Positions 31,688 through 40,270 of a DNA stretch of 40,270 bases are shown piece by piece (position 1 is the first letter of the stretch; the number at the start of each line of letters is the position of its first letter). The notes below the pieces were generated by a model. The model had not been told where the DNA came from. It did no database searches and worked only from the letters and a program-made list of their open reading frames with translations. Source of the DNA: a virus. Taxonomy: Duplodnaviria > Heunggongvirae > Uroviricota > Caudoviricetes. The stretch covers positions 1 through 40,270 of the IMG/VR virus record IMGVR_UViG_2740892440_000005; one strand, 5' to 3'. The translations under genes and the position numbers were made by a program.

Positions 31688-33076
31688 ATGGCTACTTGGC
31701 AAGGATCAAATGGCGGATTGTTAGCTGGTATCGGCGGCGTCAACTCAAACGCTCCGAGCGTAAATGACATCGGCAATACGCTTCAGTTTATCAGGCAGAA
31801 CAATGATATTGAGCGTTCAGGCGCTAACAATGTTGGGCTGACTGCTTTGCAAGGCCTTTCAGGTATTGCGGGGGTGTTTCAGCAGGAAAAGCAGGCTCAG
31901 CGGCAGAAAGAATTTCAGCAGGCATACGCTAATGCTTATGCGTCTGGTGATCGCGGTGCTTTGCGTCAGTTGGCTACTCAATATCCAGACCAGATTGAAT
32001 CCGTTCGTAAAGGCATGGGATTCATTGATGAAGATCAGCGTAATTCTATCGGCACCTTAGCGGCTGGCGCACGCCTTGCGTCATCGTCTCCAGAAGCAAT
32101 GCAATCATGGCTGCAAAACAACGCCAAGGAACTGACTCGCGTCGGTGTTGACCCTAACAGCGTTGCTCAGATGTATCAGCAGAACCCTTCAGGATTTGGT
32201 GAGTTTGTTGATCACCTCGGAATGGCTGCTCTTGGTCCGATTGATTACTTCAATGTTCAGGACAAGATGGCTGGTCGTGAGATTGACAGAGGCAGACTGG
32301 CAGAGACAATCCGCAGCAATCAGGCCGGAGAGGCGCTAACAGCACGAGGTCAGAGCATCACGATGCGCGGTCAGGATTTATCTGCTTCTACTGCGCGACG
32401 CGGGCAGGATTTGGCAATGCAGCGAGCGTCAACAAGAGGAACCGCTGGGAATGATGAGCGTACAGTTCAGTTATCAGATGGCAGAACTGTAACGGTAGGC
32501 GGGAAGCTTCACGGCGCTGGGGCTAATGCGTTCTACGAAGGCATCGACAACGAGGGGAATATGGTTCGCGTTCCTGCCAGTTCAATCGCAGCGCCTGCAA
32601 CATCGTCTGCATCAGCACAAAACTATGCCATGAAGAAGGATATCGACGCGATCGCAAATGCAGACGCTTCTGCTCTCGATTTCATGACAGGAATGACAGG
32701 CGGTGCAGGTAATCCAGCAATTGGTGCTGATGTTCGCAGCCGATTAACAGGAAAAGAGCAGCGCCAGTTATATAACTCAGCACAACGTATTCAGGGCAGA
32801 ATGCAGAATCAGGGTGTGGCGGCAGCAAGGGACATGGGTGCCAGTGGTATTAACACCGTTGCAGAAGCGAAGATGTATTTTCAGGGGATGCCGCAGGTTG
32901 ACTATTCGAGCCCGGAGGCTATGCAGCAGTCGATTCGTGAGATTCAGGAATACACCAACAATTACAACCAACAATATAACGTTAATGTTGGTAAATCTCA
33001 GCGGAAGCAATCTCAACCTGCACAGGTATCACAGCCAGCAGCCAGCAGTAACTTTTCTTCACTATGGGGTGATTAA
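31688..33076 (+). CDS. Ejection protein, P22 gp20-type (462 aa)
   Basis: Position and size in the conserved 7-20-16 order. Confidence 0.75.
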
Positions 33077-35073
33077 TGGCTAAAGCATGGAAAGATGTTA
33101 TCGCCTCTCCACAGTATCAGGCGTTAGCACCAGAACAAAAAGCGCAGGCTCAGGAGCAATACTTCAATGAAGTCGTTGCCCCGCAAGCTGGAGAAAATGC
33201 AGAGCAGGCTAAGCAAGCTTTCTATGCTGCCTATCCATTGCCATCTGTGCAGCCAGTGGAGACACAACAACCAGTATCACAGCAACAACCACAGCAAAGT
33301 GGATTTATGTCTGATCTTGGTGAAGCAGTAAAAGAGACTGGTCGCGGACTGGTGCAGGCTGGCGTGAACGTGGCAAACATACCTGCATCAGTTGCCGATG
33401 CTGTAACAAGCGCGGCGGCTTGGGCTGGCGGTAAACTCGGTATTGGCGATGGTACATATCAACCAGCACCACGAGTAACAACGCAGGGATTAGAGCAGGA
33501 CTTTGGCCTTCAGCAAGGTGCGCTGACTCCACAAACGACAGAGGGAAGGGTATTTGCTGAAGCATTGCCTTACCTCACTCCTGCTGGCATTGAGAGAGCG
33601 GCGGTACAGGCACCAACACTTGCTGGTCGAATTGCTCAGGGGGCAACTCGCCTTCTCGCAGAAAACGCAGTTGGATCACTTGCTGCAAACAGTATGAAAG
33701 ATGATGCGGAAGCACTCGCTACCGATTTAGGTGTTGGCGTTCTGGCAGGCGGCGCTATTAACGCTGCTGGACGTGGATTAGGTGCTGCTTATCGTGGCGT
33801 TCGCGGTGCTATTGCGCCAGAAACGCAGCAAGCTATCAGATTTGCAGAGCGTGAAGGAGTTCCTCTGCACACCACAGACCTGTTACAACCCACTTCCCGC
33901 GTCGGAAAAATGGCGCAGACTACAGCAGAAAATATCCCCATGGCTGGCACAAGCGGAATGAGAGCAACACAACAGGAAGCGAGAAGCCAGTTGGTACAGA
34001 GATTTGCCGATAAATTCGGTGAGTACGATCCAGCGGTTGTTATTGACAGCCTTAAAGCGAAAACATCAGGAATTCGTCGTGCTGCCGGTAATCGACTGGA
34101 GCAGGTTCAGAATGCTATGGCTGGAGTAAACATTCAGCCTGTGCGAGCAATTCAGCAGATTGATACTGAGATATCTAACCTGCAGAAGCTTGGTAAGGTC
34201 GCTGATAACGAGACGATTTCAAAACTTCAATCCTATCGTGATGAGCTTATTCGCAATGCTGGTCCTGATGGTCCGGTAAATCTGGATTTGAAGCAATTAA
34301 GCGATCTGCGCAGCCAGTTCAGAATGGACGTGAAGGGGGAACGACCAGTGTTACCAAACCGTTCCGATGCTGCCATTCAGCGCGTTTACAAGGCGATGAC
34401 AGACGATATCAATGGTGCCATTGGTCAGAATCTTGGCAATGATACTCTCCGTAAATATCAGCAGGCCAATGCCGTCTACGCTGACGAAGCGGCGAAACTA
34501 AAGAATACCAGGCTGAAGAATGTTCTCATGAAAGGCGACCTGACGCCGGAAGTTGTCAACAACATGCTATTCAGCAAGAACAAATCGGAAATTAAGACGC
34601 TGTATAACTCAGTTGGTCGTGTTGGCAGGGCGCAAATGCGCAATGGCATCATTGGAAAGGCGATGGAGAAATCTGGCGGATCCCCTGACCAGTTCCTTCG
34701 GCAGCTTAACATCCTGCAAAACCAGACTGGCATCACATTTAAGGGGCAGGACGCTGCTTATCTGAAAGGATTAAAAAACTATCTGCAATCCACGCAGCAG
34801 GCTGCAAAAGCGGCAGTAACAACACCCACAGGGCAGCAAACTATCCCGTTCATTATTGGGTATGGGACGGCAATGAACCCGGCGACAACTGGCGCAGCAG
34901 TAAGCTACGGACTTCTTACTCGCGCCTATGAGAGCGAGCTATTCAGAAATGCAATGCTCCGAATGGCAAACACCCCACGCGGATCGACAGCGTTTGAGAA
35001 AGCCATGCAGCAAGCGCAAAAAGCGATTAATGCACTGACGCAGGGTGCGAAGTCTGATTCGTTGTCAGAATAG
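33076..35073 (+). CDS. Ejection protein, P22 gp16-type (665 aa)
   Basis: Position and size in the conserved 7-20-16 order. Confidence 0.75.
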   Translation: MAKAWKDVIASPQYQALAPEQKAQAQEQYFNEVVAPQAGENAEQAKQAFYAAYPLPSVQPVETQQPVSQQQPQQSGFMSDLGEAVKETGRGLVQAGVNVANIPASVADAVTSAAAWAGGKLGIGDGTYQPAPRVTTQGLEQDFGLQQGALTPQTTEGRVFAEALPYLTPAGIERAAVQAPTLAGRIAQGATRLLAENAVGSLAANSMKDDAEALATDLGVGVLAGGAINAAGRGLGAAYRGVRGAIAPETQQAIRFAEREGVPLHTTDLLQPTSRVGKMAQTTAENIPMAGTSGMRATQQEARSQLVQRFADKFGEYDPAVVIDSLKAKTSGIRRAAGNRLEQVQNAMAGVNIQPVRAIQQIDTEISNLQKLGKVADNETISKLQSYRDELIRNAGPDGPVNLDLKQLSDLRSQFRMDVKGERPVLPNRSDAAIQRVYKAMTDDINGAIGQNLGNDTLRKYQQANAVYADEAAKLKNTRLKNVLMKGDLTPEVVNNMLFSKNKSEIKTLYNSVGRVGRAQMRNGIIGKAMEKSGGSPDQFLRQLNILQNQTGITFKGQDAAYLKGLKNYLQSTQQAAKAAVTTPTGQQTIPFIIGYGTAMNPATTGAAVSYGLLTRAYESELFRNAMLRMANTPRGSTAFEKAMQQAQKAINALTQGAKSDSLSE

Positions 35074-35280: not shown

Positions 35281-35538
35281 TTACTCGATCGCTTGCATTG
35301 TGTTTACAGCCTGATAATTCAATAAAGCCTGCTGGAATGCTTGGCTTTGTGCTATTTGTTGGGCTTGTTCTTGGCTTTGTAATTGAACATAAAGATTCTG
35401 AAGCTCAAGTCTTGCCTGTGCGTCACTTATCTTGCCTTCATCGACACCTTGCCCGAGCATCTTTGCAGCAAGGACATACAGCTTAGGTGTTGGTGCTGAT
35501 GCCATGCGTGAGTCGTTCTTCACACTGGCATCAAGCAA
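35281..35538 (-). CDS. Gln/Ala-rich coiled-coil ORF (85 aa from TTG, 74 aa from ATG), possibly the displaced C-terminus of the upstream lipoprotein
   Basis: No convincing RBS; begins 18 nt inside the lipoprotein ORF in another frame. Confidence 0.35.
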   Translation of the reverse strand: MLDASVKNDSRMASAPTPKLYVLAAKMLGQGVDEGKISDAQARLELQNLYVQLQSQEQAQQIAQSQAFQQALLNYQAVNTMQAIE

Positions 35539-35648
35539 TTAGCCATATCGCTAAGCTTTTGATAGCGTTGTTCGCAACTTGCTTGATAGTCACTTACTTT
35601 TGCGCATCCAACCAGCAGAAGCGGGATAATTAACAGTGATTTTTTCAT
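35520..35648 (-). CDS. Short lipoprotein (42 aa) with signal peptide MKKSLLIIPLLLVGC
   Basis: Hand-translated; AAGGAGAG RBS 10 nt upstream; lipobox LLVGC; ORF stops after only 27 mature residues. Confidence 0.45.
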   Translation of the reverse strand: MKKSLLIIPLLLVGCAKVSDYQASCEQRYQKLSDMANCLMPV

Positions 35649-35718
35649 ATGGTTAACTCTCCTTAGTTTTTCACAGGATAGCATGAAGGCAATGCCACTT
35701 TAGCCGGAAACTAGATTT

Positions 35719-35985
35719 CTATGTTTCCTTTTTATTATTGCTATACATGGTCTTAAGCGTTTCAAAAACCATTTTCTTAACCATATCAGATTGTTGTTCT
35801 GCCATACGCTCTGCATCGTCAATGTAAACGGATGCAGAGCTTTGTTTAGCCAACGATTCTTCAATCGCTGCAATTATCTCTGAGTTCAGCGATCTGTTAT
35901 TCATCTTCGCACGCTGCTTAATTTTCGCGTGGAGTTCATGCGGAAGTCTCAAGTGAAACTGCGCCTCGTCGTATTTGCTGTACAT
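35719..35985 (-). CDS. mnt: Mnt-like ribbon-helix-helix repressor (88 aa)
   Basis: ...FHLRLPHELHAKIKQRAKMNNRSLNSEIIAAIEESL...DDAERMAEQQSDMVKKMVFETLK parallels P22 Mnt. Confidence 0.75.
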   Translation of the reverse strand: MYSKYDEAQFHLRLPHELHAKIKQRAKMNNRSLNSEIIAAIEESLAKQSSASVYIDDAERMAEQQSDMVKKMVFETLKTMYSNNKKET

Positions 35986-36058
35986 CCTTGATGCCTCACC
36001 AGTTGGGTGGAATGGCATCGTAACCTACTGGATAAATACTCAATAGTACCATTTCGGT

Positions 36059-36081
36059 ATGCAATCACATCATGGTTGCAT
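36059..36081. promoter_or_regulatory. Palindrome ATGCAA-N11-TTGCAT between mnt and tailspike (candidate operator)
   Basis: Inverted repeat read directly in the divergent intergenic region. Confidence 0.3.
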
Positions 36082-36106
36082 CATATCATTCGTTTGGAGC
36101 AATGAA

Positions 36107-38584
36107 ATGCCAGATATCACCGCAAATGTTGTAGTGAGCATGCCTTCGCAACTCTTCACTATGGCCCGCTCTTTTAAAGCCGTAGCTAATGGCAAAATTT
36201 ATATCGGTAAAATTGACACTGACCCGGTAAATCCTGAAAACCGGATTCAGGTTTATGTAGAGAATGAAGACGGTTCTCACGTTCCTGTTTCTCAACCAAT
36301 CATCATTAACGCTGCCGGTTATCCGGTATATAACGGACGGATTGCCAAGTTCGTTACTGTGCAAGGGCATTCTATGGCTGTTTATGATGCGTATGGTGCA
36401 CAGCAGTTTTATTTCCCTAATGTACTGAAGTACGATCCAGATCAACTTCGACAAGATTTATCTATGGAGCATGGCTCCCTGTTGATTGGAGGGGTAATTG
36501 ATATATTTGATTCAGTTAAAAATTTAATAGACACATCCCCTGGCGGTGATAGGGTTATATATTGCCATGGTTTTTACAATAACGGTGATGGCGGTTGCGG
36601 AACGTGGATAAGAAAATCTGATTATGATGGTGGTGAATATACAGGTCTTCCCGTTATTTTGAATGGGAAAGTTATTATATTTACTAAAGACAGTCTTGCT
36701 TACGAGCTCCTTATTGAAGATGAGATAGATATAAGAAAACTAGGAGCAAATGAAGAGGAACCAATTGATTATGTATTTTCATTGGCTGCCGATGTATGTA
36801 GAATAAACAATATAGTTAACAAGATTGTTATATATGGCAAATATATCCATAAGAACCCTTTAATTATACCTCCTGGCGTTTTTGTAGATTACATAGATTA
36901 TGATTATTCATGGACTAAAAAAATCACAAATAATAAATCAGGACTACCAACATTAACTGGTTCATATGGCGGTGATCTTATTATGGATGTTGATGCATGC
37001 ATAATACTTGATCACGGATACGGGCACAGAATTGATAATTTCAACATAAAATGCGACGCACCAGTCAGCGTTGAACACGCTATCTATCATGGATTTACCA
37101 GAGAAACAAATATTGCACAGACCATAGGGAGAATTGGCGAGTCTGGATCAACTCTTAAGTACAAGCCTATGCACGGTATAACCGCACAGCAGGGGTTTGT
37201 GCATAACTATGGCAATATAACAGCTTTTACGCAAAAAGGAACGTGGAACTATATCTTCAACACGGCTGGAACAGGATGTAACCTTATTAAGGTACGCCAG
37301 TCTTGGAACTATGATTCAACAGAGACGGCAATACGTTTCCAAGGTTCTACTAACGTATCTCTCGGTCAACAGTATTGCGAACAAACAAAGCAACGTATTT
37401 ATGAGTTTTATGGTTGTACAGGTGGGGTTATTGATGTTCTTAGCATTGATAACCACGAATGCAATCAGGTCGCATCGGCCCTGTATACCAGAAACTCACA
37501 AATAACACTTGGAGCGCTTACTGTAAACGCAGTAACAGTTGCAACAGGCGTTTCTGCGAAATTCATTGAACATACAGTTGGTACTGGGATATACGGATGT
37601 TTGACAATCAATGGAATAACAGCAAGAACAATCCAGCTTAATGTCCCGAATCTGACAACAATTACAAAGGATAACGGAGGAGTTGGTAACAACTGTGTCA
37701 TTCGAGGAATGCCAATCCCGCCGATAGGCGCACTCGGTAATATAGGTGCAACAGATGCATCCACTGTTAGCCAAGAATCTGATACAGGTGTGGTGTCAAC
37801 GCCTCATTATCGTAGCGTTTCTTGTAGCTTTGGTTCGCAAGCATCCGGTGCGAGATCATCGGTAATTGATAGTTTTAGCTGCCATGCTGCCACAGAAGGT
37901 TCTACAGTTATCTCCAGCACAATAACCAAGTCGGCTGAGTCTTTCGAGGTCTGTGGAGGATATGGCGGAACAACTGTAGGCAACCCACTAACAGGAAATA
38001 GAAAGTGGTCCATATCTTCTTTGTACGGGACGATCAAAGCATCTGGAGCAATAACTAATGGGGCCAGTTTTGCTGATTATGCTGAGTACTTTGAGAACGC
38101 AGAATTGGGAGTTATTCCTCTTGGTACGCTTGTAGACCTAATTGGTGACAAGGTGGCGCCAGCTAATGGTGATGATTTTGTTGGCGTTGTTTCTGGAACT
38201 GCTGGTGTAATATTAAACTCAGCATCACTTGTATGGTCAGGCAAGTATTTGACTGGTGATCACGGAGAGCCAATCTATGAATACATAGATGGAGTGAAGG
38301 TTAGAAAAATAAATCCTGATTACTCTCCTGAAATGGTACTTGCTGGGTTTGACGATGAAGGAAATGAAGTTTACACAGAAAATTATATACCACGTGAAGA
38401 AAGACCAGATGAATGGTCATGCGTAGGTCTTATTGGTCAGGTTTACGTTAACGTCTCTTATGCTGTAAAGATTGGTGATTGGCTTACCGCAATTAATGGC
38501 GTTGGTGTTCCATCTGAAACTAAGACACGGCTCAGAGTTATGTCAATAGTATCTGAAGGTATAGCTAAGTGTATTATAAAATAG
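36107..38584 (+). CDS. Tailspike: P22 gp9-type head-binding N-terminus, divergent AT-rich receptor-binding domain, C-terminal chaperone-like domain (825 aa)
   Basis: [43 protein letters not shown] matches P22 gp9 residues 1 to about 115; GGAG RBS; composition turns AT-rich from about 36470; ...[11 protein letters not shown]... near the C-terminus. Confidence 0.85.
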
Positions 38585-39265
38585 TCAGAAGTGTATTTTA
38601 TCAATATGCTAGTTTGACCGTAAATTTACTATTCCAGTCATTATAAATCATACACACAAGTCTTTGCGATGGATTGCAAGGCTTTGTGCTCTTCGATAGT
38701 GGTTAAGGTGGGTCACTCCACCTTTTCATCAAGCCAGTCCGCCCACCACTGCATCATTTCTCTGCGCTTAACGTAGTTGATGCATCACTATCACCCTGTA
38801 ATGGCTTATTACTGGTTTGCAGACAGGTAGGCATGAACATATACCTGCGCATGAAGATGGGACTAGTCCGGATGCGATATTTTTGGTGATCACGTACATC
38901 ATCAACGAAGCGCGTTATGGTGAGTTTGATGACTACCCGCTGAAGTGAAAATTGTGTTGTGTACCAAATTGCGTACCAAACTAAAATCACAAATCATGAA
39001 ACCCTTGCTCATGGCGGTTCTCAGGGGTGTTGCGCGTAATCGTGAAACAAAAAGGTAGATTGTTGCTTACCGTCATTCATCATTAGGTTAAATCCGTTAT
39101 TTCTGCTGTCTGCCAGAGTATCAAATATCACCGTACTAATCAGCTTTAGCGCCACAAGATCATGTCAGATAAAAATGAGAGGGTAGTCACATTTTCTTGC
39201 ACTTTATTCCAGCCAGTTCATAAGTATTTCCGTAAAAAGAACAGCTATTTGAAACTCCTGAGGGT

Positions 39266-40270
39266 TTGCTGTTGAAACGCCGACTTATTATTGCTGCTTC
39301 TTTGTTCGTTTTTAACTTATCGTCTGGTTTTGCGGCGGAAAACATTCCTTTTTCACCTCAGCCTCCAGAGATTCATGCCGGGTCCTGGGTACTGATGGAT
39401 TACACCACCGGACAGATCCTCACCGCGGGTAATGAGCATCAACAGCGCAATCCCGCCAGCCTGACAAAGCTGATGACGGGTTATGTCGTGGATCGCGCTA
39501 TCGATAGTCATCGCATTACGCCAGACGATATTGTCACCGTGGGGCGCGATGCGTGGGCGAAAGATAATCCGGTGTTTGTCGGTTCTTCACTGATGTTTTT
39601 GAAAGAGGGCGATCGCGTATCGGTACGTGATTTAAGCCGTGGTTTAATTGTGGATTCCGGAAATGACGCTTGTGTTGCACTGGCTGACTATATTGCCGGT
39701 GGGCAACGGCAGTTTGTTGAAATGATGAACAACTATGCCGAGAAGCTGCATCTCAAGGATACGCATTTTGAAACAGTGCATGGTCTGGATGCACCTGGCC
39801 AGCATAGCTCGGCTTATGATTTAGCTGTGCTTTCTCGCGCTATCATCCACGGCGAGCCCGAGTTTTATCATATGTACAGTGAGAAAAGCCTCACCTGGAA
39901 CGGTATCACCCAGCAAAACCGTAACGGGTTATTGTGGGATAAAACCATGAATGTTGACGGCCTGAAAACGGGTCATACTTCTGGTGCCGGGTTTAATCTC
40001 ATTGCTTCGGCTGTAGATGGGCAGCGTCGTCTCATTGCAGTGGTAATGGGTGCTGACAGCGCAAAAGGTCGTGAGGAAGAGGCAAGAAAATTACTGCGTT
40101 GGGGGCAACAAAACTTTACTACGGTGCAAATTTTGCACCGTGGGAAAAAGGTCGGTACGGAACGCATCTGGTATGGCGATAAAGAAAATATCGCCCTGGG
40201 AACGGAACAAGAGTTCTGGATGGTGCTACCGAAAGCCGAAATTCCACATATCAAAGCCAAATATACTTGA
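39266..40270 (+). CDS. dacD: D-alanyl-D-alanine carboxypeptidase DacD (PBP6b), 3' partial at window end
   Basis: MLLKRRLIIAASLFVFNLSSGFAAENIPF... matches my recollection of E. coli DacD; TTG start; ORF runs to the window edge. Confidence 0.9.
   Translation: MLLKRRLIIAASLFVFNLSSGFAAENIPFSPQPPEIHAGSWVLMDYTTGQILTAGNEHQQRNPASLTKLMTGYVVDRAIDSHRITPDDIVTVGRDAWAKDNPVFVGSSLMFLKEGDRVSVRDLSRGLIVDSGNDACVALADYIAGGQRQFVEMMNNYAEKLHLKDTHFETVHGLDAPGQHSSAYDLAVLSRAIIHGEPEFYHMYSEKSLTWNGITQQNRNGLLWDKTMNVDGLKTGHTSGAGFNLIASAVDGQRRLIAVVMGADSAKGREEEARKLLRWGQQNFTTVQILHRGKKVGTERIWYGDKENIALGTEQEFWMVLPKAEIPHIKAKYT

Follow-up and report, generated by a model that had tools for sequence, protein, structure and literature searches.

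A probable P22-type prophage tailspike with a foreign beta-helix and a phi29-type (Peptidase_G2) chaperone domain

The gene at positions 36107-38584 (plus strand) of the IMG/VR virus record IMGVR_UViG_2740892440_000005, whose analysed stretch of 40,270 nucleotides (nt) is called here the window, most probably encodes a modular tailspike of a P22-like prophage, built of a head-binding dome, a beta-helix, a stalk and a self-cleaving chaperone of the phi29 type (family Peptidase_G2, or G2). The frame of 825 codons is intact and its product has a mass of 89.1 kDa. The parts of the gene and the sequences bordering it are listed below, with residue numbers referring to the product and with L001 and L002 denoting two other copies of the gene in P22-like prophages.

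36096-36099, plus strand: Shine-Dalgarno sequence GGAG, seen in the sequence itself; the ATG at 36107 follows after 7 nt
36107-36445, plus strand: P22-type head-binding (tail-hub docking) domain, residues 1-113 (PF09008, identity to Sf6, DNA identity)
36446-37741, plus strand: receptor-binding domain, residues 114-545
36452-36910, plus strand: AT-rich orphan piece within the receptor-binding domain, covering about residues 116-268, about 460 nt (GC content 0.33-0.34)
36911-38574, plus strand: segment shared with tailspikes of unrelated lytic-type phages (blastn), comprising the remainder of the beta-helix together with stalk and chaperone
37799-38074, plus strand: pre-cleavage stalk, presumably trimeric, residues 565-656 (phmmer homology to phi29 gp12 and Dpo31)
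38072-38077, plus strand: predicted autocleavage site Ala656-Asp657 (...NGASFA/DYAEYFEN...), from alignment with phi29 gp12 and Dpo31
38075-38581, plus strand: Peptidase_G2-type intramolecular chaperone/autoprotease, residues 657-825 (169 residues), 18.4 kDa (PF11962)
38585-38770, plus strand: downstream 186 nt travelling with the gene in other prophages (identity to L001 and L002)

Residues 1-113 match the full PF09008 profile (E 7.7e-66, 219.9 bits against a cut-off of 24) and are closely related to the head-binding domains of Sf6 gp14 (87% identity over residues 1-119) and P22 gp9 (about 70-74%). The domain ends with the YDPDQ hinge (residues 109-113). Its DNA is 88-94% identical to the tailspike genes of HK620, Sf6, CUS-3 and other phages, although only up to gene nt about 338-358 (residues 113-119), which places the breakpoint at the hinge. 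An earlier note on this DNA, made from the sequence alone, had described a mosaic tailspike in which residues 1 to about 115 track P22 gp9 and the protein then ceases to resemble P22. Both parts of this description were borne out, since there is no sequence similarity to P22 past residue 115 or so and the P22-type module is joined at the hinge to an unrelated receptor-binding domain. The head-binding DNA is present in 1,082 of the 5,426 complete E. coli genomes searched. The domain would form a trimeric dome docking the spike on the tail hub, as in P22 and Sf6. P22-like tailspikes are homotrimers, of which the tail hub of a virion carries six copies. The enclosing open reading frame (ORF) extends from 36059 to 38584 on the plus strand. 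The start was assigned to the ATG at 36107 rather than to 36059 because the product then begins in register with both Sf6 gp14 and the PF09008 profile, its residue 1 facing position 1 of each, the GGAG sequence lies 7 nt upstream, and the DNA homology with L002 starts at 36101.

After the hinge, the AlphaFold2 (AF2) monomer model contains a right-handed parallel beta-helix, predicted with confidence at about residues 130-540. This fold and its general role in recognizing surface glycans are well supported. When residues 116-656 were scanned alone, no Pfam or PHROG family was found, save a gp12-like stalk just before the cleavage site, and no NCBIfam family was detected at E<=0.1. Specificity for colanic acid, suggested by PHROG 8280 as the top match of the whole protein, was rejected: the match disappeared with residues 116-656 alone and is a spurious effect of the head-binding domain that these proteins have in common. 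Since the central domain bears no resemblance in sequence to P22 gp9, the receptor is very likely not the P22 O-antigen.

The beta-helix would recognize, and probably also depolymerise, a host surface polysaccharide (O-antigen or capsule) and thereby set the host range. That it only binds the glycan or strips a substituent such as an acetyl group, without cutting the backbone, seems unlikely to us. The best structure matches of the helix are enzymatically active tailspike depolymerases, and a set of acidic and histidine residues (D294, D296, D302, H303, E333, E425 and D448) is invariant in the family, both of which argue for a depolymerase.

The C-terminal part of the protein gave equally clear homologies. 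PF11962 ('IMC autoproteolytic cleavage domain') matches residues 599-816 (E 1.4e-46, 159.2 bits against a cut-off of 25) and is found with residues 657-825 alone as well (E 3.8e-35, 121.8 bits). Among solved structures, the C-terminal 290 residues match the Cobetia phage depolymerase Dpo31 (E 9e-36) and phi29 gp12 (E 1e-26); the separate matches to the Dpo31 'chaperon domain D4' and to the C-terminal fragment of phi29 gp12 have E-values of 2.5e-31 and 3e-18, respectively. The preceding stalk aligns in phmmer with residues 594-691 of phi29 gp12 and 579-663 of Dpo31, and is thus homologous to the final approximately 100 residues of the mature phi29 gp12* and of Dpo31 D3; PHROG 4775 matches at positions 607-698. 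Residues 565-656 would form a trimeric stalk. Their low predicted local distance difference test (pLDDT) score in the monomer model is expected for an intertwined trimer.

At the junction of the stalk and the chaperone the protein carries the G2 motif x/D-[FY]-A-E-[YF]-F-E, with Asp at P1' and Glu three residues later. The released fragments of phi29 gp12 (3gqh, DFAEYFES) and of Dpo31 (D4) both begin at the residue aligned with Asp657, and A656-D657-Y-A-E660-Y-F-E aligns with S691-D692-F-A-E695 of phi29 and A663-D664-Y-A-E of Dpo31; mature phi29 gp12* ends at residue 691. Residues D657, A659, E660, F662, E663 and N664 are invariant in 12 homologues whose identity otherwise falls to 47%, and P1 is either Ala or Ser among them. 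The pre-mature, uncleaved crystal form of phi29 gp12 (3suc) has DFAQYF instead of the wild-type DFAEYF, which points to Glu660 as necessary for cleavage because Gln there replaces the motif Glu. The DYAEYFE motif, which had been picked out in the earlier note, is by its sequence the G2 cleavage and catalytic motif. Autoproteolytic cleavage is predicted between Ala656 and Asp657, and would convert the 89-kDa precursor into a mature spike of about 70.6 kDa, close in size to the 666 residues of the P22 spike, and an 18.4-kDa fragment. Residues 657-825 would nucleate trimerisation and folding of the beta-helix and then excise themselves, so that the 18.4-kDa chaperone fragment is not expected in the virion.

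This prediction follows what is known of related spikes. Autocatalytic release of the C-terminal domain has been shown for phi29 gp12, and the spikes of phi29 and K1F aggregate when expressed without their C-terminal domains. An ATP-binding pocket has been reported for the chaperone domain of phi29 and is said to be conserved in Dpo31. The Dpo31 chains end at residue 663, D4 begins with Asp664 (...YA/DYAEYFEN), most constructs lacking D4 were insoluble, and an 18-kDa band was always released (PMC13317679). It is improbable that the G2-like domain is instead kept uncleaved in the mature spike, with a distal role in trimerisation or receptor contact, in the way P22 keeps its C-terminal domain. 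Such retention would fit the Ala at P1, where phi29 has Ser, but Dpo31 is cleaved at the same A/DYAEYFEN site, and the invariance of the motif Asp and Glu in the 12 homologues is hard to explain without catalysis.

The foreign part of the gene is itself a mosaic. Gene nt 805-2468 share 90-91% DNA identity (blastn) with the spike genes of two pairs of loci, L003/L004 and L005/L006. The former have a siphovirus-like context and a spike N-terminus of the PF18668 (Tail_spike_N) type, whereas the latter are N4-like, with N4 gp1/gp2 and SU10-type portal genes. At the protein level, the identity over residues 316-500 is 95-100%, and a 79%-identical protein is encoded in a phage contig of about 130 kb. 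The receptor-plus-chaperone module is thus found behind other N-termini in N4-like, siphovirus-like and ~130-kb phages, in Providencia prophages and in a Vibrio phage. The swapped host-range module proposed in the earlier note therefore corresponds to a receptor-binding module demonstrably exchanged between unrelated phages, with approximately 90% DNA identity behind different N-terminal adaptors. In one metagenomic relative (P0005), the helix core is 99-100% identical, whereas the chaperone (residues 657-825) is only 53-68% identical, which indicates that the chaperone itself can be exchanged independently of the helix.

The base composition shows a further discontinuity. The GC content of the spike gene is 0.408, compared with 0.478 for the whole window, and its GC at third codon positions (GC3) is 0.31 vs 0.44-0.58 in the neighbouring late genes. 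The sliding-window check showed that the composition is not uniform along the gene: residues 116-315 (36452-37051) have a GC content of 0.34, the lowest 300-nt value of the window (0.30, starting at 36651) is about 4 standard deviations under the mean, and past about 37050 the GC content is back to 0.40-0.47. The AT-rich DNA reported earlier is thus real but confined to roughly 36452-37050 instead of covering the whole foreign part; the 30-nt run quoted as an example was found at 36554-36583 but had been given with one incorrect base, the first (G, not A).

The first approximately 460 nt of the foreign part (36452-36910) are a separate orphan mosaic piece. No DNA match to them was found in 50,697 phage records, they are present only in the two other copies of the same gene, L001 and L002, and the encoded protein is just 36-53% identical to its nearest relatives. 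In L003 and L005, the GC content of the homologous genes does not drop at this position. Judging from these breakpoints, the gene would have arisen through at least two recombination events, one at the hinge and the other near gene nt 805, where the AT-rich orphan N-terminal receptor part would have been joined to the ~90%-identity part from unrelated coliphage-type genomes.

The complete cassette of 36101-38770 is 99% identical in L002 and L001, and the sequence upstream of 36101 differs. In L002, its surroundings are those of another P22-like prophage, located at argW/intS and with other upstream genes (arc-ant). The spike gene differs from this independent copy by 20 nt, only 4 of which alter the protein; 15 of the 20 differences fall within the first 63 nt (36107-36169), a concentration that may mark a tract of micro-recombination where the head-binding domain begins. 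In L001, an IS3-family element (L001 6734-7962) is located within the AT-rich segment of the gene, at a point corresponding to about 36824-36829 of the window. The two pieces of the L001 gene have 6 nt in common (gene nt 718-723), as would be expected from a target-site duplication.

Several observations weigh against the assignment of a functional, self-cleaving depolymerase spike. The full-length AF2 monomer model is poor outside residues 130-540, and the C-terminal third is badly modelled; the head-binding and chaperone domains were accordingly assigned by sequence homology and not from the model. The identity of the beta-helix to solved structures is at most 13%, a level at which hydrolase, lyase, esterase and binding-only functions are not separable. 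P1 is Ala here and in Dpo31, vs Ser in phi29 and the Providencia homologues. Finally, in the sole complete E. coli genome with the gene, the copy is split by IS3.

The last point would agree with a decaying remnant in a defective prophage that makes no functional spike, as would the lack of an integrase beside the spike in this window and the apparently split neighbouring gene at 35281-35684. We nevertheless consider a remnant very improbable. The 825-codon frame is intact, the few differences from L002 are mostly silent in the protein, and the P22-type late operon upstream of the spike is complete, consisting of long ORFs 95% identical to those of viable phages. The tailspike is the last gene of this P22-like late operon. 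Up to position 36100, the backbone shares about 95% identity with IME10 and HZ41, both Lederbergvirus phages, and the gene order is that of the P22 ejection-protein genes followed by mnt and the spike, with these features preceding the spike:

31688-33076: injectosome translocase (Inj_translocase, PF16928)
33076-35073: DNA transfer protein (PHROG 770)
35719-36018, minus strand: Mnt/Arc-type repressor (Arc domain and Mnt C-terminal motif)

Self-cleaving chaperones at the C-terminus belong to two known families, S74 (K1F) and G2 (phi29), and the motif S-[DE]-x-R-x-K carries the Ser-Lys dyad at the S74 cleavage site (endoNF). The earlier note had assigned the C-terminus to the S74 type. Its chaperone-like character over the last approximately 170 residues was recognized correctly, the domain having 169 residues (657-825) and being homologous to a self-cleaving intramolecular chaperone (PF11962), and the 11-residue protein string quoted for it is present at residues 653-663; it was the family that proved to be wrong. 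Peptidase_S74 (PF13884) gave no match at E<=1 with the whole protein or at E<=10 with its separated parts, including the isolated C-terminus, and a regular-expression search found no S-[DE]-x-R-x-K in the protein. An S74-type domain of the endosialidase or T5 tail-fibre kind, cleaving by a Ser-Lys dyad, would share the C-terminal location on a trimeric spike and a generally similar function, and has a precedent in the P22-like phage CUS-3 with its endosialidase spike and P22-type N-terminal domain, but it is hardly conceivable here, being already refuted at the sequence level while the strong matches go to PF11962, phi29 gp12 and Dpo31.

The receptor-binding module assigned to this probable G2-type spike is very rare. 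When 1.84 billion cluster representatives (50% identity clusters) were searched exhaustively with HMMER, 8 relatives of the central domain were found, and a word-indexed search of 5.8 billion sequences yielded 14. In IMG/VR, there are 3 loci with the receptor-binding domain (56-59% identity), all of low GC content (0.36-0.38). No relative was found in the 185,579 species-representative genomes of GTDB, although this was a pattern-based scan and thus provides weak negative evidence. The part of the gene outside the head-binding region occurs in only one of the 5,426 complete E. coli genomes, that of strain GPEC79-13-647 (L001). Relatives of residues 116-825 among the 50,697 phage records belong to phages of Staphylococcus, Bacillus, Cobetia, Clostridium, Vibrio and a few other hosts, and none was found there in Escherichia, Salmonella or Shigella phages.

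The frequency of the head-binding plus G2 architecture could not be counted in the same way: a word-indexed search with the chaperone only returned short fragments and missed known full-length relatives, which made it unusable for this purpose. A literature search found no paper on a P22-type spike with a G2 chaperone, which is weak evidence considering that the collection is incomplete. The architecture is already in databases under automatic names, as a Providencia 'phage tailspike protein' (PF09008 and PF11962) and in E. coli as a 'peptidase G2 autoproteolytic cleavage domain-containing protein'.

Downstream of the spike, the window enters E. coli dacD, and the spike therefore lies at the right end of the prophage. 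The element is a Lederbergvirus (P22-like) prophage of E. coli adjoining dacD. Window positions 38585-40270 are matched over at least 80% in 571 complete E. coli genomes. The Mnt-type repressor gene (35719-36018, minus strand) is the sole gene of the immI region before the spike, and L001 and L002 have arc family genes and ant instead; the spike cassette thus sits in different immI contexts.

Some minor features of the region were also observed. Overlapping ORFs of 54 aa and 85 aa at 35281-35684 (minus strand), between the ejection-protein genes and mnt, match consecutive parts of phrog_6067, a family of unknown function (profile positions 1-39 and 39-122), and the first of them has a lipoprotein-like signal (LLLVGC); the pair look like one gene split by a frameshift. 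Inside the spike gene, antisense ORFs of 92-122 aa (36086-36454, 37465-37764 and 37496-37774, all on the minus strand) have no supporting evidence and are most simply regarded as chance frames. A scan for promoters and terminators around the spike gene found nothing above chance.

A 119-bp stretch behind the spike (38652-38770) recurs in two different settings. It occurs at the tailspike-intS junction in the argW-site P22-like prophages L001 and L002, with the last approximately 58 nt of intS included, and again in strain JBEHAAB-19-0176 (L007), behind a lambdoid prophage in the flank next to dacD. A scar left by recombination is one possible origin of this stretch, and the remains of an old prophage at the dacD integration hot spot are another. 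Just upstream of dacD, the segment at about 38764-38948 corresponds to what the RefSeq annotation of L007 lists as a pseudogene of an 'S24 family peptidase', frameshifted and truncated at its N-terminus.

The combination of modules in this spike is uncommon, the module types are known and the mechanism is ordinary. The sole part that could be new is the specificity of the very rare beta-helix family. It is possible, if somewhat less than probable, that the beta-helix defines a very small, uncharacterised depolymerase family, perhaps for a rare E. coli glycan, that it has recently passed between P22-like, N4-like, siphovirus-like and ~130-kb phages together with a G2 autochaperone undescribed in enterobacterial phages, and that the AT-rich piece (residues ~116-268) is a lineage-specific neck grafting this module to the P22 dome.

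The spike could serve as a depolymerase or typing reagent for a surface polysaccharide of E. coli that the characterised tailspikes do not recognize. The predicted cleavage site can guide its expression: residues 657-825 should be retained in the construct and a 70.6-kDa product should be expected. Phages of Gram-positive and marine bacteria are the main known carriers of the phi29-type G2 auto-chaperone, which apparently also serves P22-type spikes of Enterobacteriaceae. The locus moreover offers a clean and datable case in which a receptor module has moved between temperate and lytic phages that differ in morphotype. The general understanding of how tailspikes work is not changed by these findings.

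The spike shares with P22 gp9, Sf6 gp14 and HK620 gp9 the head-binding domain, the YDPDQ hinge, the position as the last late gene after the ejection-protein genes and a right-handed beta-helix, and it differs from them in having no similarity beyond residue ~115. The P22 protein retains its C-terminal domain on maturation, but the stalk of the present spike is followed by a separable G2 autoprotease domain. The exchange of receptor domains behind a conserved P22-type N-terminus is textbook knowledge, with CUS-3, HK620, Sf6 and P22 as the standard example. The CUS-3 endosialidase, in which a P22-type N-terminal domain is joined to a foreign receptor module, is the precedent for the present arrangement, and the K1F endosialidase, which has the same catalytic domain, has its C-terminal chaperone cleaved off after folding. 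The general design of these spikes agrees with that of ours. Both, however, combine an S74 chaperone with a beta-propeller sialidase, in contrast to the G2 chaperone and the beta-helix found here.

The similarity to phi29 gp12 (3gq7, 3gqh, 3suc) comprises the homologous C-terminal ~260 residues, the sequence D-[FY]-A-E-Y-F-E at the start of the released auto-chaperone domain and the same order of beta-helix, trimeric stalk and cleaved chaperone, the cleavage being predicted in our case. The phi29 protein differs in its N-terminal coiled-coil arm, in a beta-helix unrelated in sequence and in Ser instead of Ala at P1; moreover, phi29 has a Gram-positive host and a teichoic-acid receptor, unlike the E. 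coli spike. The best match with a solved structure is the exopolysaccharide (EPS) depolymerase Dpo31 of Cobetia phage Carin-1 (28lx, 28nb; PMC13317679), which aligns with residues 440-805 (E 3e-35) and has the identical A/DYAEYFEN site. Its N-terminus consists of a beta-sandwich and a coiled coil rather than a P22 head-binding domain, its helix is left-handed with 17 turns and an immunoglobulin (Ig)-like insert, and the overall identity is only about 31%.

The same beta-helix and G2 chaperone, with 55-83% identity, are found in a protein of a Providencia prophage (P0009), in a 'coil containing protein' of Vibrio phage 1.144.O (P0012) and in the metagenomic spikes P0002-P0005 of N4-like and siphovirus-like phages. 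The closest homologues are without the AT-rich variant of residues ~116-268, and the N-terminal adaptors of the other homologues differ (PF18668 or none recognised), whereas the Providencia protein also has a P22 head-binding domain and hence the same overall architecture as the spike described here.

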